Shown: in pieces, positions 38,233 through 62,500 of the stretch | Numbering within the stretch: the first letter of the stretch is position 1 | How the letters are laid out: each line of letters begins with the position of its first letter | Assembly: GCF_963921235.1 (NCBI RefSeq) | Contig: NC_086097.1 | Span: 154,072,001 to 154,136,000 of the forward strand | DNA: 64,000 nucleotides | Reading direction: 5' to 3' | DNA from: Mobula hypostoma | Taxonomy: Eukaryota | The notes under the pieces: generated by a model | Seen by the model: the letters and a program-made list of their open reading frames with translations, nothing else | Told to the model about the DNA's origin: nothing | Databases searched by the model: none | Program-made: the position numbers and the translations under genes

Positions 38233-39349
38233 GGACACAGAATAGTACAGCACAGTACAGAACCTTCGGCCCACTATGCTGTGCCGACCCGCAAACCCTG
38301 CCTCCCATATAAGTCCCCACCTTAAATTCCTCCATATACCGGTCTAGTAGTCTCTTAAATTTCACTAGTGTATCTGCCTCCACCACTGACTCAGGCAGTG
38401 CATTCCATGCACCAACCACTCTCTGAGTAAAAAACCTTCCTCTAATATCCCCCTTGAAATTCCCACCCCTTACCTTAAAGCCATGTCCTCTTGTATTGAG
38501 CAATGGTGCCCTGGGGAAGAGGTGCTGGCTATCCACTCTATCCATTCCTCTTAATACCTTGTATACCTCTATCATGTCTCCTCTCATCCTCCTTCTCTCC
38601 AAAGAGAAAAACTCTAGCTTCCTTAATCTCTGATCATAATTCATACTCTCTAAACCAGGCAGCATCCTGGTAAATCTCCTCTGTACCCTATTTAATGCTT
38701 CCACATCCTTCCTATAGTGAGGCGACTAGAACTGGAAACAGTACTCCAAGTGTGGCCTAACCAGGGTTTTATAGAGCTGCATCATTACATCGCGACTCTT
38801 AAATTCTATCCCTCGACTTATGAAAGCTTTCTTAACTACCTTATCTACCTGTGAGGCAACTTTCAGTGATCTGTGGACATGTACCCCCAGATCCCTCTGC
38901 TCTTCCACACTACCAAGCATCCTGCCATTTACTTTGTACTCTGCCTTGGAGTTTGTCCTTCCAAAGTGTATCACCTCACATTTCCCCGGGTTGAACTCCA
39001 TCTGCCACTTCTCAGCCCACTTCTGCATCCTATCAATGTCTCTCTGCAATCTTCGACAACCCTCTACACTATCTACAACACCACTAACCTTTATGTCATC
39101 TGCAAACTTGCCAACCCACCCTTCTACCCCCACATCCTGGTCGTTAATAAAAATTACGAAAAGTAGAGGTCCCAGAACTGATCCTTGTGGGACACCACGA
39201 GTCACAATCCTCCAATCTGAATGTACTCCCTCCACCACGACCCTCTGCCTTCTGCAGGCAAGCCAATTCTGAATCTCCCTGGCCAAACTTCCCTGGATCC
39301 CATGCCTTCTGACTTTCTGAATAAGCCTACCGTGTGGAACCTTGTCAAA
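38233..39349 (-). mobile_element. 5'-truncated CR1
   Basis: ORFs 38726..39415 ([23 protein letters not shown]) and 38177..38704, plus a CR1-type 3'UTR. Confidence 0.93.
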
Positions 39350-39536
39350 CTTTTGGTGAAAGTTCTTGTATGGTGAGGTTGGATTGGAGTTTCCAGGATA
39401 AAGAACTACCAACAAAGAACACTAGTGACTAGACACTAGAATACTACAGCACAGTACAGGCCCTTTGGCCCTCGATGTTGTGCCGACCCATATATTCCTT
39501 AAAAAAAAGTACTAAACCCACACTACTCCGTAACCC

Positions 39537-39791
39537 AAACACGAGGAAATCTGCAGATGCTGGAATTTCAAGCAACACACATAGAAGTTGCTGGTGAACG
39601 CAGCAGGCCAGGCAGCATCTATAAGAAGAGGTACAGTCGACGTTTCGGGCTGCGACCCTTCGTCAGGATTAACTGAAAGAAGAGCTAATAAGAGATAGCC
39701 TCGGCTAGTCTCGGCCCAAAACGTCGACTGTACCTCTTCCTATAGATGCTGCCTGGCCTGCTGCGTTCACCAGCAACTTTTATGTGTGTTG
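39537..39791. mobile_element. Palindromic Penelope-terminus insertion with a 14-bp TSD
   Basis: Arms 39571-39656 and 39708-39793 are near-perfect reverse complements. Flanked by ctactcc(g/a)taaccc at 39523-39536 and 39792-39805. Confidence 0.9.
39634..39671 (-). ncRNA. Minimal type I hammerhead ribozyme motif (Penelope-associated), core intact
   Basis: Minus strand: UAAUC CUGACGA A GGGU-CGCA-GCCC GAAAC GUC GACUG. This gives the CUGANGA/GAAA/NUH core, a 4-bp helix II, a weakened helix I and a palindromic loop-less helix III. Confidence 0.72.
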
Positions 39792-40534
39792 CTACTCCAT
39801 AACCCTCTATTTTTCTTTCATCCATGCGCCTGTCCAAGAGTTCTCTTAAATACCCCACCACCATCCCTGGCAAGTCATTCCAGGCACCCACAACCCTCTG
39901 TGTAAAAAGCTTACCCCTGACGTCTCCCCTAAACTTCCCTCCCTTAACTTTGTACATATGCCCTCTGGGGTTTATTATTCGTGCCCTGGAAAACAGGTAC
40001 TGGCTATCCACCCTATCTATACCTCTCATAATCTCGTAGACCTCTATCAAGTTCCCTCTCATCTCTCTACGTTCCAAAGAGAAAAGTCCCAGTTCTGCTA
40101 ACCTTGCCTCATAAGACTTGTTTTCCAATCCAGGCAACATCCTGGTAAATCTCCTCTGGACCTTCTCCATAGCTTCCACATCCTTCTTATAATGAGGTGA
40201 CCAGAACTGAACACAATACTCTAAGTGTGGTCTCACCAGAGATTTATAGAGTTGCAACATGACCTCTCTACTCTTGAACTCAATCCCTCTATTAATGAAG
40301 CCTAGCATCACATAGGCCTTCTTAACTATCCTATCAACCTGTGCAGTGACCTTGAGGGATGTATGGATTTGAACCCCAAGGTCCCTCTGTTCATCCACAC
40401 TCTTAAGTAACTGACCATTAACCCTGTACTCAGCCTTCTGGTTTGTCCTTCCAAATGCATCACCTCACACTTATCCAGATTGAACGCCATCTGCCACTTT
40501 TCTGCCCAACTCTGCATCCTGTCGATATCCTCTT

Positions 40535-41285: not shown

Positions 41286-41619
41286 CAGTTGCTTGTAACC
41301 TTCAACAACCTACAGCTCCATCCACAACTCCGCTGATCTTCGTGTCATCCACTAACTTACTCACCCATCCTTCTGCCTCTTCATCCAAAAATCACAAAGA
41401 GCAGGGGGTCCCAGGACAGATCCTTGCGGCACTCCACTAGTCACCGACCTCCAGGCAGAATACTTTCATTCCACTAATACCCTCTGCTTTCTTCCTGTAA
41501 GCCAATTATTTGTCCAAACAGCCAAGATTCCACTAATCCCATGCCTCATGACTTTCTGGATGAGTTTCTCGTGGGGGACCTTGTCAAATGCCTTGTTAAA
41601 ATCCATGTAGACCACATCT

Positions 41620-43972
41620 TAGATCTTCTATTAGGAAACGAGTTAGGACAGGTGACAGAAGTTTGTGTAGGGGAACACTTTGTTCCAGTGATCATAACAC
41701 CATTAATTTCAACTTGATCATGGATAAAGATAGATCTGGTCCTCGAGTTAAGGTTCTAAACTGGAAAAAGGCGAAATTTGAAGAAATGAGAAAGGATCTA
41801 AAAAGCGTGGATTGGGACAGGTTGTTCTCTGGCAAGGATGTGATTGGTAGGTGGGAAGTCTTCAAAGGAGAAATTTTGAGAGTGCAGAGTTTGTATGTTC
41901 CCCCTGTCAGGATCTTTAATCCTGTCAGGATTAAAGGCAAAGTAAATAAGAATAAGGAACCTTGGTTCTCAAGGGATATTGGAGCTCTGCTAAAGAAGAA
42001 GAGAGAGATGTATGACATGTATAGGAAACAGGGAGCAAATAAGGTGTTTGAGGAGTATAAAAAGTGCAAAAAAAAAACTTAAGAAAGAAATCAGGAGGGC
42101 TAAAAGAAGACGTGGGGTTGCTTTGGCAGCCAAGGTGAAGGATAATCCAAAGAGCTTCTACAGATATATTAAGAGCAAAACGATAGTAAGAGATAAAATT
42201 GGTCCTCTTGAAGATCAGAGTAGTCGGCTATGTGTGGAACCAAAAGAAATGGGGGAGATCTTAAATGGATTTTTTGCGTCTGTATTTACTAAGGAAACTG
42301 GCATGGAGTCCATGGAAATAAGGCAAACAAGTAGTGAGGTCATGGAACCTATACAGATTGAAGAGGAGGAGGTGCTTGCTATCTTGAGGCAAATCAGAGT
42401 AGATAAGTCCCCAGGACCTGATATGGTATTCCCTTGGACCTTGAAGGAGACTAGTGTTGAAATTGCAGGGGCCCTGGCAGATATATGTAAAATGTCGGTA
42501 TCTACGGGTGAGGTGCCAGAGGATTGGAGGATAGCTCATGTTGTTCCGTTGTTTAAAAAAGGCTCTAAAAGTAATCTGGCAAATTATAGGCCGGTAAGTT
42601 TGACGTCGGTTGTAGGTAAATTATTGGAAGGAGTACTAAGTGATAGGATCTACAAGTACTTGGATAGACAGGGACGTATTAGGGAGAGTCAACATGGCTT
42701 TGTGCGTGGTAGGTCATGTTTGTCAAATCTGTTGGGAGTTTTTTGAGGTAGTTACCAGGAAAGTGGATGAAGGGAAGGCAGTGGATGTTGTCTACATGGA
42801 CATCAGTAGGGCCTTTGACAAGGTCCCGCATGGGATGTTAGTTAGGAAGATTCATTTGCTAGGTATACATGGAGAGGTAGTAAATTGGATTAGACATTGG
42901 CTCAATGGAAGAAGCCAGAGAGTGGTAGTGGAGGTTTGCTTCTCTGAGTGGAGGCCTGTGACTAGTGGTGTGCCACAGGGATCAGTGCTGGGTCCATTGT
43001 TATTTGTCATCTATATCAATGATCTGGATGATAATGTGGTAAGTTGGATCAGCAAATTTGCTGATGATACAAAGATTGAAGGTGTAGTAGACAGTAAGGA
43101 AGGTTTTCAGAGCCTGCAGAGGGACTTGGACCAGCTGGAAAAACGGGCTGAAAAATGGCGGATGGAGTTTAATACAGATAAGTGTGAGGTATTGCACTTT
43201 GGAAGGACACACCAAGGTAGAACATACAGGATAAATGGTAGGGCACTGAGGAGTGCAGTAGAACAGAGGGATCTGGGAATACAGATACAAAATTCCCTAA
43301 AAGTGGCGTCACAGGTAGATAGCGTCGTAAAGAGAGCTTTTGCTACATTGCCCTTTATAAATCGAAGTATTGTGTATAAGAGTTGGAATGTTATGGTGAG
43401 GTTGTATAAGGCATTGGTGAGGCCGAATTTGGAGTACTGTGTGCAGTTTTGGTCACCAAATTACAGGAAGGATATTAATAAGGTTGAAAGAGTGCAGAGA
43501 AGGTTTACAAGGATGTTGCCAGGACTTGAGAAACTCAGTTACAGAGAAAGGTTGAATAGGTTAGGACTTTATTCCCTGGAGCGTAGAAGAATGAGGGGAG
43601 ATTTGATAGAGGTATATAAAATTATGATGGGTATAGATAGAGTGAATGCAAGCAGGTTTTTTCCACTGAAGCTAGGGGAGAAAAAAACCAGAGGACATGG
43701 GTTAAGGGTGAAAGAGGAGAAGGTTAAAGGGAACATTAGGAGGGGGCTTCTTCACACAGAGAGTGGTGGGAGTGCGGAATGAGCTGCCAGATGAAGTGGT
43801 AAATGCAGGATCACTTTTAACATTTAAGAAAAGCTTGGACATGTACATTGATGAGAGGTGTATGGAGGGATATGGTTCATGTGCAGGTCAGTGGGACTCG
43901 GCTCAAAAATGGTTCAGCTCAGCCAAGAAGGGCCAAAAGGCCTGTTTCTGTGCTGTAATGTTCTATGGTTTT
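41620..43972 (+). mobile_element. 5'-truncated CR1 of the same subfamily as 57170-61295
   Basis: Colinear and highly similar to ~58963-61290. ORFs 41663.., 42012.. and 42640.. give the endonuclease end and RT. TTCTATGG tail. Confidence 0.95.
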
Positions 43973-55247: not shown

Positions 55248-56084
55248 TGAAGAAGCCATCACTTGTACATGTCAATACTCAGAATCCAAGCCCTAAATGA
55301 TGGTTGATTTCCTCACTGAAGTGTACAGACCTATGGGCCTTGTGCTCTTCAGCTGGAAGACAAAGATCTTTTACCATGTTGCCCCTTGCAACACATTGCA
55401 ATCAACCTGACAACTGAGATCCAGACAGAGAACGTAAGGCGATGACTGCTGCCAGCAGCTAACAGCTAACAGCTACAGCTGTGCAAAGCATGATGCAAAA
55501 CAGGAGAAGCCAATTCACATGAGCAACAATTTATTGTGAGAAGAAAAATAGATATGACTCATAGCCACACCAGAGCAGAAAACTGTGCAGCGTCTTCAGT
55601 TCGAAGAAACAGAAGAACAGATGGCCTGTGATGCTCTCTGAGAATTTCCAAAGACATTGGTAACAATAACATTGAACAGTTGTTCTCTATTGTAGTATCA
55701 TAGAATGTATCAGGTATTGTTCTTAGAAACCATCTGTAGTGAGCAGACTGTGAAATAATGTTTTAAACGAAACCTTCATTAAATAAAGAACTATATTTCC
55801 CTGAGACACGTTATTTTCAGTAAGGGGTAATTTAGCTTTGTTGGCATTCAAGGTTTCCAAAGCAGGCAGAAGAGCTTGTGGTGCCTATGCTAATAAGTGA
55901 TCACTACAGGTTAAAATGGTGAAATGCTTAGCTGGGAAGACATGGTAGTTAGACCCACATGGGAAAACTTTCCAGAGCAATCAATTCCTTGAACCCTATT
56001 TCTCATTGACTTAAATGTTTGAAGAGTCCCAACAATCTGAATAATGACTTCTGTATAAACATATAAATAAAAAAAGCATCAAAT

Positions 56085-57169
56085 AAGGTTCCCCATGCGA
56101 AGCTTATTCAGAAAGCAATGAGGCCTGGGATCCAAGAAGACCTTGCTTTGTGGATCTAGAACTGGCTTGCCCACAGAAGGCAAAGGGTGGTTGTAGATGT
56201 TCGTATTCTGCATGGAGGTCGCAGACCAGTGGTGTTCCACAGGGATCTGTTCTGGGACAACTCCTCCTTATGATTTTTATAAATGACCTGGATGAGGAAG
56301 TTGAAGGGTGGGTTAGTAAGTTTGCTGGTGACACAAAAATTGATGGTGTGTGGATAGTCTGGAGGGTTATCAGAGGTTACAGTGAGACATCGATAGGATG
56401 CAGAACTGGGCTGAGAAGTGGCAAGTGGAGTTCAATCTAGAGAAGTGTGAAGTGGTTCATTTTGGTAGGTCAAGTTTAAAGACAGAATATAATATTAAGG
56501 CAAGACTCTTGGCAGTGTGGAGGATCAGCAAGATCTTGGGCACCGTGTCCATGGGACACTCAAATCTGCTGCGCAGGCTGACAGTGTTGTTAAGAAGGTA
56601 CATGGTGTTTTGGCATTCATGAACTGTGGGATTCAGTTCAAGAGCTGTGAGGTAATGTTGCAGCTATATAAGACCTTGGTTAGACCCTACTTGGAATACT
56701 GTGTTCAGTTCTGGCCACCTGACTACAGGAAAGATATGGATACTATAGGGAGAGTGCAGAAGGAATTTACAAGGTTGTTGCTTGGATTGGAAGGCATACC
56801 TTATGAGAATAGATTGAGTGGACTTGGCCTTTTCTCCTTGGAGCAACGGAGGATGACAGGTGACCTGACAGAAGTGTATAAGATGATGAGAGGCATTGAT
56901 CATGTGGATAGCCAGAGGATTCTCCCCAGGGCTGAAGTGGCTAACATGAGGGGGCATAGTTTTAAGGTGCTTGAAAGTAGACACGAGGGGGATGGCAGAG
57001 GTACGTTTTTCGCACATAGAGTGATGGGTGCGTGGAATGCACTGCCAGTGACAGTAGTAGAAGTGGATGCAATATGGTCTTTTAAGAGGCTCCTAGGTAG
57101 GTACATAGAGCTTAGAAAAACAGTGGGCTATGCAGTAAGGAAACTATAGGTAATTTGTAGAGTAGGTTA
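56085..57169 (+). mobile_element. Older 5'-truncated CR1 (RT C-terminal half); its 3'UTR resumes at 61296-~61400
   Basis: Fragmented ORFs with [19 protein letters not shown] and LYKTLVRPYLEYCVQFW. (TTCTATG)n-like tail at ~61350-61400. Confidence 0.88.
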
Positions 57170-57357
57170 AACCTTGACGTAGCGCGCCAAGGTTTAAAAA
57201 GCTGAACACCATAGCGGCCATCATTGTAGCGGCCATCATCGGAGTGGACTGAGTCAGAGTGGGACGGCTTTGGCTCAAACAGGCTTCGGCGAAAACAGGC
57301 AAAGGCCAGGGTAGGTTCCGGTAAGTTTTTTTGTTCAGATTGTTTAGTACAGAGAGA

Positions 57358-58292
57358 ATGCCAGGCAGGATGTTGGAATGCTCCTCTTGCAGGATGTGGG
57401 AAGTCAGGGAGCCCTCCGGTGTCCCAGACAACCACACCTGCAAGAAGTGCATCCAGCTGCAGCTCCTGACAAACCGCGTTAGGGAACTGGAGCAGGAGCT
57501 GGATGACCTGCGGATCATTCGGGAGAATGAGGAGATTATAGATCGTAGCTACAGGGAGGTAGTTACGCCAAAGGAGCAGAGGACAGGAAATTGGGTCACT
57601 GTCAGACGAGGGAAGAGGAAAGGGCAGGCAGAGCAGGGTTCCCCTGTGGCCATTCCCCTCAACAACAAGTATACTGCATTGGATACTGTTGGAGGGGGAT
57701 GACTTACCTGGGACAAGCTGCAGTAGCCGGATCTCTGGCACTGAGTCTGGCTCTGCAGTGCAGAAGGGAGGGGGAAAAGAGGAGAGGGGTAGTGATAGGG
57801 GACTCGATAGTTAGAGGTGCAGATAGGAGGTTCTGTGGTCGTGACAGAGAATCCAGGATGGTTTGTTGCCTCCCGGGTGCCAGCGTCAAGGATCTCTCCG
57901 ATCGATTGCATGACATTCTGAAGTGGGAGGGTGACCAGCCAGATGTCATGGTGCACATAGGTACCAATGACATAGCAAGGAAGAGTGAGGAGGTCCTGGA
58001 CAGTGAGTATAGAGAGCTTGGTAGGAAGTTGAAAAGCAGGACCTCGAGGGTGGTAATCTCAGGATTGCTACCTGTGTTACGTGCCAGTGAGGGTAGGAAT
58101 AGGATGCTCTGGAGGATGAACAGGTGGCTGAGGAACTGGTGTAGGGGGCAGGGTTTCAGATTTCAGGATCATTGCGACCTCTTCTGGGGCAGGTGGGACC
58201 TGTACAAGAGCGACGGGTTACACTTGAACTACAGGGGGACCAATATCCTTTCAGGGAGGTTTGTTAGTGCTATTGGGGAGGCTTTAAACTAG
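57358..58292 (+). pseudogene. CR1 ORF1: C-x2-C-x16-C-x2-C zinc finger, leucine heptads and SGNH/GDSL esterase; frameshifted in G runs
   Basis: ATG at 57358 (MPGRMLECSSC...TCKKC...LTNRVRELEQEL). Esterase blocks IGDS, PGA, GTND and DGLH in ORF 57591..58292. Inferred +1 G at 57694-57698 and 57770-57774. Confidence 0.9.
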
Positions 58293-61222
58293 ATTTGCAG
58301 GGGGATGGGAACCAGAGTGCCAGAGCTGACAGTGTGGCTGGGGTAAAAATAAATGATATTAAATTTCAAGCAAATCCGCTAATAGAAAGGTTGTTAATGG
58401 TGGTAAAAATCTTCTGAGGTGTATATATTTCAATGCTAGGAGTATTGCGGGGAAGGCGGATGAGTTGAGGGCGTGGATTGACACGTGGAATTATGAAGTT
58501 ATAGCAATTAGTGAAACTTGGCTACAGGAGGGGCAGGACTGGCAGCTTAATATTCCAGGGTTCCGATGTTTCAGCTGTGATCGAGGCAGAGGAATGAAAG
58601 GTGAGGGAGTAGCATTGCTTGTTAGGGATAATATTACAGCAGTGCTCAGGCAGGACAGATTAGAGGGCTTGTCCACTGAGTCCTTATGGGTGGAGCTGAG
58701 AAACAGGAAAGGTATGGCCACATTAGTGGGATTGTATTACAGACCACCCAATAGTCAACGAGACTTGGAAGAGCAAATCTGCAGAGAGATAGCAGGCAAC
58801 TGCAGGAAACATAAAGTTGTGGTGGTAGGGGATTTTAATTTTCCATATATTGATTGGGACTCCCATACTGTTAGGGGTCTAGATGGTTTAGAGTTTGTAA
58901 AATGTGTTCAGGAAAGTATTCTAAATCAATATATAGTGGGACCAACTAGAGGGGATGCAATATTGGATCTCCTGTTAGGAAACGAGTTAGGACAAATGAC
59001 GGAAGTCTGTGTAGGGGAGCACTTTGGTTCCAGTGATCATAACGCCATTAGTTTCAACTTGATCATGGACAAGGATAGATCTGGTCCTAGGGTTGAGGTT
59101 CTGAACTGGAAGAAGGCCGAATTTGAAGAAATGAGAAAGGATCTAAAAAGCGTGGATTGGGTCAGGTTGTTCTCTGGCAAAGATGTGATTGGTAGGTGGG
59201 AAGCCTTCAAAGGAGAAATTTTGAGAGTGCAGAGTTTGTATGTTCCTGTCAGGATTAAAGACAAAGTGAATAGGAATAAGGAACCTTGGTTCCCAAGGGA
59301 TATTGCAACTCTGATAAAGAAGAAGAGGGAGTTGTATGAAATGTATAGGAAACAGGGAGTAAATCAGGTGCTTGAGGAGTATAAGAAGTGCAAGAAAAAT
59401 ACTTAAGAAAGAAATCAGGAGGGCTAAAAGAAGACATGAGGTTGCCTTGGCAGTCAAAGTGAAGGATAATCCAAAGAGCTTTTACAGGTATATTAAGAGC
59501 AAAAGGATTGTAAGGGATAAAATTGGTCCTCTTGAAGATCAGAGTGGTCGGCTATGTGCAGAACCAAAGGAAATGGGGGAGATCTTAAATAGGTTTTTTG
59601 CGTCTGTATTTACTAAGGAAACTGGCATGAAGTCTATGGAATTAAGGGAAACAAGTAGTGAGATCACGGAAACTGTACAGATCGAAAAGGAGGAGGTCCT
59701 TGCTGTCTTGAGGAAAATTAAAGTGGATAAATCCCCGGGACCTGAGAGGGTGTTCCCTCGGACCTTGAAGGAGACTAGTGTTGAAATTGCGGGGGTCCTG
59801 GCAGAAATATTTAAAATGTCGCTGTCTACAGGTGAGGTACCGGAGGATTGGAGAGTGGCTCATGTTGTTCCGTTGTTTAAAAAAGGATCAAAAAGTAATT
59901 TGGGAAATTATAGGCCGGTAAGTTTAACATCGGTAGTAGGTAAGTTATTGGAGGGAGTACTAAGAGACAGAATCTATAAGCATTCGGATAGACGGGAACT
60001 TATTAGGGAGAGTCAACATGGCTTTGTGCGTGGTAGGTCATGTTTGACCAATCTATTGGAGTTTTTCGAGGAGGTTACCAGGAAAGTGGATGAAGGGAAG
60101 GCAGTGGATATTGTCTACATGGATCTCAGTAAGGCCTTTGACAAGGTCCCGCATGGGAGGTTAGTTAGGAAAGTTCAGTCGCTAGGTAGACATGGAGAGG
60201 TGGTAAATTGGATTAGACATTGGCTCAATGGAAGAAGCCAAAGAGTGGTAGTAGAGAATTGTTTCTCTGAGTGGAGGCCTGTGACTAGTGGTGTGCCACA
60301 GGGATCAGTGCTGGGTCCATTGTTATTTGTCATGAATATCAATGATCTGGATGATAATGTGGTAAATTGGATCAGCAAATTTGCTGATGATACAAAGATT
60401 GGAGGTGTAGTAGACAGTGAGGAAGGTTTTCAGAGCCTGCAGAGGGACTTGGACCAGCTGGAAAAATGGACTGAAAAATGGCAGATGGAGTTTAATACAG
60501 ACAAGTGTGAGGTATTGCACGTTGGAAGGACAAACCAAGGTAGAACATACAGGGTTAATGGTAAGGCACTGAGGAGTGCAGTAGAACAGAGGGATCTGGG
60601 AATACAGATACAAAATTCCCTAAAAGTGGCGTCACAGGTAGATAGGGTCATAAAGAGAGCTTTTGGTACATTGGCCTTTATTAATCAAAGTATTGAGTAT
60701 AAGAGCTGGAATGTTAAGATGAGGTTGTATAAGGCATTGGTGAGGCCGAATCTGGAGTATTGTGTTCAGTTTTGGTCACCAAATTACAGGAAGGATATAA
60801 TTAAGGTTGAAAGAGTGCAGAGAAGGTTTACAAGGATGCTGCCAGGACTTGAGAAACTCAGTTACAGAGAAAGGTTGAACAGGTTAGGACTTTATTCCCT
60901 GGAGCATAGAAGAATGAGGGGAGATTTGATAGAGGTATATAAAATTATGATGGGTATAGATAGAGTGAATGCAAGCAGGCTTTTTCCACTGATGCAAGGG
61001 GAGAAAAAAACCAGAGGACATGGGTTAAAGGTGAGGGGGGAAAAGTTTAAAGGGAACATTAGGGGGGGCTTCTTCACACAGAGAGTGGTGGGAGTATGGA
61101 ATGAGCTGCCAGATGAGGTGGTAAATGCGGGTTCCTTTTTAACATTTAAGAATAAATTGGACAGATACATGGATGGGAGGTGTATGGAGGGATATGGTCT
61201 GTGTGCAGGTCAGTGGGACTAG
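58283..61222 (+). pseudogene. CR1 ORF2: APE endonuclease plus reverse transcriptase, split by single-base indels
   Basis: Endonuclease motifs YFNARSI, ISETWL, GLYYRPP, VGDFN and SSDH in and just upstream of ORF 58465..59406. RT motifs [27 protein letters not shown] and FADD in ORF 59372..61222. The 5' boundary is inferred. Confidence 0.9.
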
Positions 61223-62500
61223 GCAGAAAATGCTTCGGCACAGCCAAAAAGGGCCAAAAGGCCTGTTTCTGTGCTGTAGTTTCTATGGTTTCTATGGTTA
61301 TATGGTCGGCACATCATTGTGGGCCAAAGGGCCTGTAACGTGCGGTAGATTTCTATTTTCTATGTTCTATGTTCTAAGTTAAGTTCTATGTTAAGTTCTA
61401 AGTACATTGGCAGTAACACCTCCAGAGACCAATTATCAACAAGAAAGAAGAACCACCTCAGATGTTGGACATGAGTGACAATCGGGACTCCTGTAGAACC
61501 GAGCTGGACAGGTTGGGAAAAAGTGGGCAATACTCCACTCTTAACGCACCAGTGCCAGAATAGTTTACAAACATTTTTTTTGGAAAAAAATATATAAGAA
61601 GGATTTGGAATAAACCAAGCATATGTATGCTGCCAAACATATGAAGTGTTTTATTTTCTATAGCTAATCAAAACACAATATTTTACAGTAAACAAAACAT
61701 GGATCAACTTGCATACCTTGGTAGCCAACCCTCAGTTGACAATGATGACAATAATCATTCTTCTTTCCAATGTCCTATATAACCTTCAGCTGACTGAGGA
61801 AAAGGACTTTTGAAGACCAAGACATGGGACTAATCTCTTACTCTACTGGGTGACCGTTTTTTAAAAAATCCTTCTGCATGCTTTAGAGACAAAAGAAGGT
61901 ACTTAAAAGTAGTAGCATGAGACCTCCAGGAAGATGTTCGCAATGCCTCCTAGGGAAAAATGTAACATACTCAGACACTCAGGGGAACCTCTGCCTTGCA
62001 ACACAAAGTGAAGAAGAGTCACTGAGCACCTTAACTCTGTAGGGCAGTGACAAATGAAACCAAAGTGCAAATAGAGAAGGAGTGTACAACATCCTAAATT
62101 AGAACATTGGCCCACTTCATGAATCACCAGCTGCCATCTGCTAACAGTGCATCCAGATCCCATAAAACACTTATCGGTAAAGTTTGATGCACAGAAATAG
62201 ATTGGAAGCAAGTCATCCAAGTCCTGGAGAACTGCCCAAGAGTAAGTGACTCCCTGATCATTCACCCTTCCTGCCCAAGAAGGCATTTCACCACTGCTTC
62301 ACCAAAAGAACTTACAAAGTAATTCTCAGCGGTATACTTCCATTTACTTATCACTCATCCGTCTAATAACCAATAGCCTGGCCCAAAGAATAGAAACATG
62401 CTAGCACAAGTACTTCCTACACAGAAAAAGATGTTAACTGAGAACTTTAATTTGCTTAATAAAAAAGTAGCACCTGATAATAATTAACAAAAATACTCAC

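Follow-up and report, generated by a model that had tools for sequence, protein, structure and literature searches.

How is the second open reading frame (ORF2) of a CR1 retrotransposon translated? The question is raised by a near-full-length long interspersed nuclear element (LINE) on the plus strand of Mobula hypostoma contig NC_086097.1, at about 57.2-61.3 kb of a stretch of 64,000 nucleotides (positions 154,072,001 to 154,136,000 of the contig) that we call the window, and in whose numbering all coordinates are given. CR1 is the dominant retrotransposon of most vertebrate species (PMC13343379), and the translation of LINE ORF2 has been termed unclear (PMC3708506); statements that cite PMC articles refer throughout to the parts of those texts that were available to us. 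In the window element, ORF1 codes for a Cys-rich N-terminus and an SGNH esterase, ORF2 codes for an APE endonuclease and a reverse transcriptase, and ORF1 ends in a slippery heptamer directly followed by its stop codon. Comparison of this junction with those of related elements makes it very probable that canonical CR1 LINEs produce ORF2 by programmed -1 ribosomal frameshifting, as an ORF1-ORF2 fusion. This reading is based on the phasing of the heptamer, the continuity of the -1 frame in relatives, the fixed codons at the ORF1 terminus, a compensatory exchange of one heptamer for another, and the lack of a start codon conserved in position.

The ORF1/ORF2 junction of the window copy

The element consists of the following parts:

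57160-57357, plus strand: CR1 5' region preceding ORF1 (left boundary approximate; a scan of 57161-57357 for ATG was empty)
57358-57702, plus strand: N-terminal part of ORF1, with two Cys-x2-Cys pairs and a coiled-coil-like stretch (aligns with the N-termini of full-length homologs; no Pfam family matched)
57768-58292, plus strand: SGNH/GDSL esterase domain of ORF1, C-terminus Ala-Leu-Asn-stop (Pfam Lipase_GDSL_2, E 1.2e-12; 204 homologs)
58283-58289, plus strand: slippery heptamer T_TTA_AAC, candidate -1 frameshift site (from the sequence, relatives, codon test and protein co-variation)
58290-58292, plus strand: ORF1 stop TAG adjoining the heptamer (TAG in 6 of 6 scored heptamer loci)
58300-58309, plus strand: G-rich tract from 11 nt 3' of the heptamer (position conserved among junctions)
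58289-58413, plus strand: linker that joins the esterase to the endonuclease in the -1 frame; the window copy lacks one base near 58361-58364 (from a contig of sequencing run X13 and from protein P0315, colinear across the break)
58414-59040, plus strand: APE endonuclease domain of ORF2, first motif from 58414 (Pfam Exo_endo_phos, E 2.5e-15; in a tree with bird and turtle CR1)
59363-61222, plus strand: reverse transcriptase and C-terminus of ORF2 (Pfam RVT_1, E 2.8e-34; frame break near 59363-59406 in the window copy)
61279-61306 and 61351-61403, plus strand: two short TTCTATG-type terminal repeat tracts (from Tandem Repeats Finder and the sequence)

ORF1 ends in GCT (58281-58283), TTA (58284-58286), AAC (58287-58289) and TAG (58290-58292), its codons beginning at positions divisible by 3, and T_TTA_AAC is phased as X_XXY_YYZ and abuts the stop, just as an initial annotation of the locus had read it. 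That annotation also described the -1 frame as open over the spacer and the other two as closed; we find the -1 frame open from a TAG at 58265-58267 across the spacer, and the 0 frame and the +1 frame each closed by stops that lie 3' of the heptamer and before 58362. No in-frame ATG precedes the first endonuclease motif, again in agreement with it: the first Met of the endonuclease ORF (58363-59406) is residue 78, within the domain. The spacer ATGs at 58305 and 58353 belong to the ORF1 frame, and the ATG at 58397 is peculiar to the window copy (A>G in more than 98% of the depth of runs X1 and X4). The G-run, which had been placed about 10 nt downstream, occupies 58300-58304 and starts 11 nt 3' of the heptamer. 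With both strands counted, the window contains TTTAAAC 21 times and TTTAAACTAG once. In-frame X_XXY_YYZ heptamers occupy 31 of 6402 codon positions (0.5%) when the long ORFs of the window element are taken together with those of seven related loci.

The window copy is decayed, with three frame breaks near 57693, 58361, and 59363-59406. The ORF1 frame is broken by an additional base in a G run near 57693-57700, and one base is absent at 57693 in contigs of runs X1, X4, and X13 compared with the window copy. The endonuclease lies in the +1 frame, so that -1 continuity fails in this copy itself and a one-base loss is required for the -1 frame to join it. The initial annotation had expected such a loss near 58360-58365, and two comparisons confirm it. 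The predicted protein P0315 (89% identical, with a gene call that begins at the spacer TTG) is colinear with the -1 spacer of the window and then, unbroken, with its +1 endonuclease frame, and the sole contig of run X13 spanning 58171-58640 carries one base more behind 58360.

Conservation of the junction in related elements

Metagenome contigs were scanned by the esterase motif, without the heptamer, and the best 80 of 156 confirmed loci were retained. Automatic scoring covered 41 of these 80, the others having no endonuclease within 600 nt (28), falling short of the esterase end (9), or having no stop (2). An X_XXY_YYZ heptamer is present at the ORF1 stop in 6 of the 41 scored loci, with TAG next in all six. 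In four of the six (L001, L002, L003, and L006), the -1 frame runs up to the endonuclease profile without meeting a stop or a Met, and in L004 it extends to the first endonuclease motif before a later indel breaks it. The endonuclease is in the +1 frame in the sixth locus, L019, and also in L009, which is too short for the profile. The heptamer of L012 is damaged, and alignment to siblings places single-base gaps in L009, L012, and L019. Locus L040, with a degenerate junction on a contig lacking the endonuclease, was left uncounted.

Two expectations of the frameshift interpretation could be examined by comparison. Intact relatives have an unbroken ORF2 in the -1 frame, and the heptamer displays no synonymous freedom, since the terminal Leu-Asn is written T_TTA_AAC in 7 of 7 junctions including that of the window and internal Leu-Asn pairs in the long ORFs of the same DNA never are (0 of 32). 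Together with the co-variation of the preceding residue (see below), this amounts to nucleotide conservation beyond coding need. Given the last three residues, the probability of the heptamer is 0.027-0.223 per family, and the product over four families sharing only 27-41% identity is about 8e-5, a figure that has to be read with their shared ancestry in mind. L003 ends in CAG GGA AAC TAG, i.e., the triplet TTT has become GGG to give G_GGA_AAC, and its ORF2 is still in the -1 frame. This change to another shift-prone heptamer, along with the other comparative tests, supports the initial interpretation of the junction as a candidate frameshift fusion. In addition, a second subfamily in X1 and X4 differs from the window copy up to 58282 and matches it from 58283 onward (344 and 320 contigs).

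The same pattern is found in proteins. Among 120 homologs listed, 91 have an intact C-terminus and 77 end in Leu-Asn (LN), and among 150 representatives at 50% identity, 116 are intact, with 50 ending in LN, 12 in Gly-Asn (GN), and 3 in Lys-Asn (KN). A pooled and redundant set of C-termini retained 199 of 255 proteins. In this set the residue before a terminal LN is able to end in T in 119 of 120 cases, the residue before GN is able to end in G in 12 of 12 (nine of them Gln), and that before a terminal or near-terminal KN is able to end in A in 16 of 16; Q, E, or K precedes GN in 9 of 12 cases versus LN in 1 of 120. These classes are the requirements of U_UUA_AAC (LN), G_GGA_AAC (GN), and A_AAA_AAC (KN), all of which a review places among the four heptamers that shift most readily on mammalian ribosomes (PMC5009743). 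The 27 clusters formed at 50% identity include 6 that are mainly LN, 3 GN, 2 KN, 3 with internal KN, and 4 with other internal patterns. ORF1 homologs with a terminal LN come from sharks, rays, bony fish, turtles, lizards, and a bird, and other homologs end in GN or KN instead; ten picked LN-ending proteins belong to turtles (3), lizards (4), one swallow, and one eel (the tenth is nameless), and sharks, rays, and one sturgeon-labelled entry are found among the ORF1 homologs.

These data also bear on a purely protein-level explanation, in which Leu-Asn is retained because it packs against the esterase, with the heptamer as a mere by-product. Although LN is kept in 120 of the 199 intact C-termini, a constraint of this kind is very unlikely, being largely refuted by the codon test, in which the codons are fixed at the terminus and not internally. 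Besides, LN stays at the stop even though the catalytic DGLH lies anywhere from about 24 to 39 residues before the terminus, and the GN and KN variants shift the class of the preceding residue.

Two further ORF1 groups carry related patterns. In one (P0080, P0124, P0128, P0138, P0142, P0144, P0146, P0150, P0153, P0154, and P0170), x-Lys-Asn is found at a fixed distance after DGLH with the stop 2-12 residues on, an arrangement that, at the protein level, is compatible with an internal A_AAA_AAC site. In another, of 20 proteins, an FF/FL pattern at the corresponding place may represent a U-rich shift site, although two members are incompatible with one.

The stop codon is conserved as well, TAG being used in all junctions examined at the DNA level. 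A conserved TAG might instead be a splice acceptor, with ORF2 made from a spliced RNA without ORF1, and a donor-like GTAAGT near 57321 in the 5' region would suit this model. We consider it the least credible of the explanations weighed here, since the 5' region has no ATG, the sequence upstream of TAG is purine-rich and has no pyrimidine tract, and splicing leaves the heptamer unexplained. Moreover, in the Hypanus RefSeq model P0018, which joins the esterase to the endonuclease by way of the -1 frame, the -1 translation Phe-Lys-Leu-Asn would imply that the stop of that copy is TAA. A gene model of Anolis carolinensis (P0355) likewise has a -1 reading across the ORF1 end, His-Phe-Lys-Leu-Asp, which, combined with the 0-frame Thr-Leu-Asn-stop of its family, points to T_TTA_AAY followed by TAG in the lizard.

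Several observations weigh against frameshifting. Four of the nine junction copies (window, L009, L012, and L019) are not continuous in the -1 frame as they stand; from the alignment, their breaks are probably copy-specific indels. P0018 is a gene model and possibly an annotation artefact, and 9 of the 27 ORF1 clusters have no terminal pattern at all. Only 1 contig of run X1 and 2 of run X4 carry the additional base after 58360 (0.3% and 1% of depth; variant figures for these runs are from 40 of 140 table rows). We read this low share as clipping of short contigs because the depth of both runs falls about fivefold in the bin behind 58360 and because the ORF1 lesion at 57693, which is copy-specific by comparison with full-length homologs, is also reported in no more than part of the depth (25% and 36%). 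X1 and X4 add no positive support for the extra base, and run X21 has 7 reads on the stretch.

The downstream RNA of the window folds no better than shuffled sequences (z +0.9 to +1.4), the eight junctions compared have no common fold and no conserved long-range duplex partner, and Rfam gave no match at the junction. A 3' stimulatory stem-loop or pseudoknot 5-9 nt downstream is usual, though not universal, for -1 frameshift signals; none was detected here, pseudoknots having been probed only by the scan for duplex partners. The best duplex partner of the window lies in ORF1, about 650 nt upstream, and the other loci have nothing equivalent. What the junctions do share is a run of at least 4 G residues, which begins 11 nt after the heptamer in eight of the nine junctions and 13 nt after it in L003; for comparison, the background is 71 of 2203 ten-base windows. 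A G-quadruplex was set aside, as most junctions have a single G-run. The stimulator is thus the weak point of the frameshift reading, the candidates being the adjoining stop and the position-fixed G-run.

The remaining adverse points concern start codons and favor termination-reinitiation of the type considered for mammalian L1 or SART1. Ribosomes would stop at UAG and restart within the linker, either at an AUG or at a near-cognate codon, releasing a separate ORF2 protein (ORF2p), and the conserved sequence would be a termination/reinitiation signal. Reinitiation is documented for SART1 (PMC3708506) and favoured for L1 (PMC5009743), and it would fit the stop retained directly after the motif and the TTG two codons past the stop in the window. 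A Met precedes the endonuclease motif by 15 residues in five Anas/Anser ORF2 models and by 28 in a Pelodiscus model, and L003 has two just before the motif. The view that no AUG is conserved at the start of ORF2 consequently stands for position, whereas in-frame Met residues near the endonuclease do exist in duck/goose, turtle, and L003, lineages in which reinitiation may operate. In L002 an ATG directly follows the TAG, but it belongs to the ORF1 frame, which is closed. No start codon at the ORF1 stop is shared by position in the ORF2 frame among the window, L001, L002, L003, L004, and L006, nor is any AUG or near-cognate position common to the six. Reinitiation predicts neither a fixed -1 frame nor the exchange of X_XXY_YYZ heptamers with a co-varying first base, and we regard it as improbable. 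Frameshifting remains our preferred reading, and on comparative grounds the heptamer and stop are best regarded as a genuine recoding signal, conserved over a great evolutionary depth, in a CR1 copy that is otherwise ordinary.

The CR1 clade and its sister LINEs

The window element has the hallmarks of CR1, namely, APE and reverse transcriptase in ORF2, an esterase ORF1, and a 3' end of short repeats instead of poly(A). In the endonuclease tree (34 rows, several of them short fragments), it falls in a 17-row clade with support 99/98 that includes proteins of Anas, Anser, and Pelodiscus, which we take to be CR1. The clade also holds all four heptamer loci present in the tree, and all 17 non-heptamer loci lie outside it. 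The grouping with amniote CR1 is by endonuclease; the reverse transcriptase domain, the customary classifier for LINEs, was left out of the tree. The nearest named proteins are from rays, with Mobula hypostoma endonuclease fragments at 91-92% identity.

The other CR1 copies in the window, at 41547-43971 (+), 38330-40529 (-), and 56067-57149 (+), are 5'-truncated and have no ORF1/ORF2 junction; one of them is 90.6% identical over 2357 bases. The TTCTATG-type tracts are the 3' end of the main CR1 and that of a second, short element end behind it. Just 5' of the apparent element start, an inverted repeat of 9 bp with a short GC-rich loop between its arms (57168-57196) can be seen by eye. Outside eukaryotes, viral contigs gave no match for the esterase, the ORF1 alignment, the endonuclease, or the junction pattern, prokaryote genomes gave one weak and unrelated match, and plasmids gave none. 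Shark-type CR1 ORF1/ORF2 proteins P0026 and P0256 are deposited as Pseudomonas aeruginosa and Carnobacterium maltaromaticum, most likely through contamination of those assemblies with host DNA.

The esterase LINEs without the heptamer, which lie outside the canonical CR1 clade, are organized differently. In 26 of the 35 scored non-heptamer metagenome loci, the endonuclease is in frame 0 of ORF1, with no further stop in 23 of the 26. Their ORF1 stop is TGA in 24 of 26 and TGA-C in 19 of 26 (C represents 19% of bases). The frame-0 loci form about nine families at the 50% cut-off, one of them large, and in 11 loci the endonuclease is preceded by neither a stop nor a Met. The loci singled out for this organization are L007, L008, L010, L011, L016, L026, L034, L035, L036, L044, L052, L055, L058, L061, L064, L069, L070, L072, and L073. 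UGA-C is a leaky stop context, and the in-frame ORF2 with an excess of TGA-C makes these elements candidates for readthrough, which suggests that sister LINE lineages may use stop-codon readthrough at UGA-C.

Precedents, proposed mechanism, and implications

Vertebrate CR1 elements with an esterase ORF1 (PMC13343379, PMC4316615, and PMC3905857) resemble the window element in their esterase ORF1, APE-reverse transcriptase ORF2, and short terminal repeats, and the esterase-type ORF1 is described as a CR1 feature (PMC13343379). Term searches of the available text of these three articles gave no mention of frameshifting, nor do the matching passages deal with how ORF2 is translated, and CR1 is not mentioned in the first 300,000 of the 449,034 characters of PMC5009743. 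The literature compared also included the available parts of PMC4176376, PMC4255032, PMC5006619, and PMC7175516. The nearest precedent is that of TRE5-A and TRE3-A of Dictyostelium, APE-type LINEs said to need a -1 frameshift for ORF2 (PMC5911963). Compared by description only, they differ from CR1 in being amoebal, in the unassigned function of their ORF1, and in having a zinc-finger domain in ORF2. Retroviral and long terminal repeat (LTR) element gag-pol and nidovirus ORF1a/1b also use -1 frameshifting at X_XXY_YYZ; unlike these, the CR1 junction has no detected pseudoknot or stem-loop, with the adjoining stop and the G-run at +11 instead. L1, SART1, and the 2A-containing LINEs share with CR1 a bicistronic RNA that needs low-level ORF2 (PMC3708506 and PMC5009743), but they make a separate ORF2p via a start codon or ribosome skipping, whereas CR1 has no conserved start and a fixed -1 frame. 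We found no literature linking CR1 to ribosomal frameshifting in a search that left out the founding CR1 papers of 1997-2003, the Repbase reports, and supplements (including those of PMC13343379 and PMC4120745). Since the founding papers may have remarked on the overlap, novelty is probable and not proven, and CR1 would probably represent a known mechanism in a family for which no report of it was found.

In the mechanism that we propose, most ribosomes would terminate at UAG and release the ORF1 protein (ORF1p), with its zinc-finger-like, coiled-coil, and esterase parts. A minority would slip one base back on U_UUA_AAC (on G_GGA_AAC, and probably A_AAA_AAC, in other lineages) and read the variable linker into the endonuclease and reverse transcriptase. 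Their product would be an ORF1p-ORF2p fusion, and the ORF1p:ORF2p ratio would be high and fixed, as it is for gag-pol. The adjoining stop and the G-run at +11 could have a stimulatory role. The initial annotation had written the -1 frame as TTT AAA CTA; the frame holds, but the Phe-Lys would be missing from the product, because tandem slippage of the Leu and Asn tRNAs would give Ala-Leu-Asn followed by Leu-Asp-Leu-Gln. In standard tandem slippage, the Phe-Lys of such a conceptual -1 translation is absent from the product.

No protease domain was detected in ORF2 with Pfam, so the fusion would not cleave itself. N-terminal additions to LINE endonucleases are tolerated elsewhere, as PHD domains precede APE in some ORF2s (PMC3708506 and PMC4120745). 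Many CR1-group elements lack ORF1 entirely (PMC13343379), and therefore the fusion probably sets the dose of ORF2 rather than being something that the enzyme requires. ZfL2-1 has an esterase ORF1p that dimerises via its coiled coil and whose purified domains showed no stable RNA binding (PMC3905857). From this, we speculate that the coiled coil of the fusion could recruit free ORF1p and tether it to the ribonucleoprotein (RNP).

If the frameshift reading is true, annotated CR1 ORF2 starts are wrong and assays of reconstructed CR1 elements have to include the junction in its native form, and the lack of an RNA structure would point to an undescribed kind of frameshift stimulator. Whether LINEs would mirror the retroviral gag-pol split between frameshifting and readthrough, with CR1 as one of the most prevalent instances of cellular -1 frameshifting among vertebrates, is to us an evenly balanced question. 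The active CR1 enzyme would be the fusion itself, which would bear on how an esterase ORF1p without RRM enters the RNP, a question already posed for this type of protein (PMC3905857).

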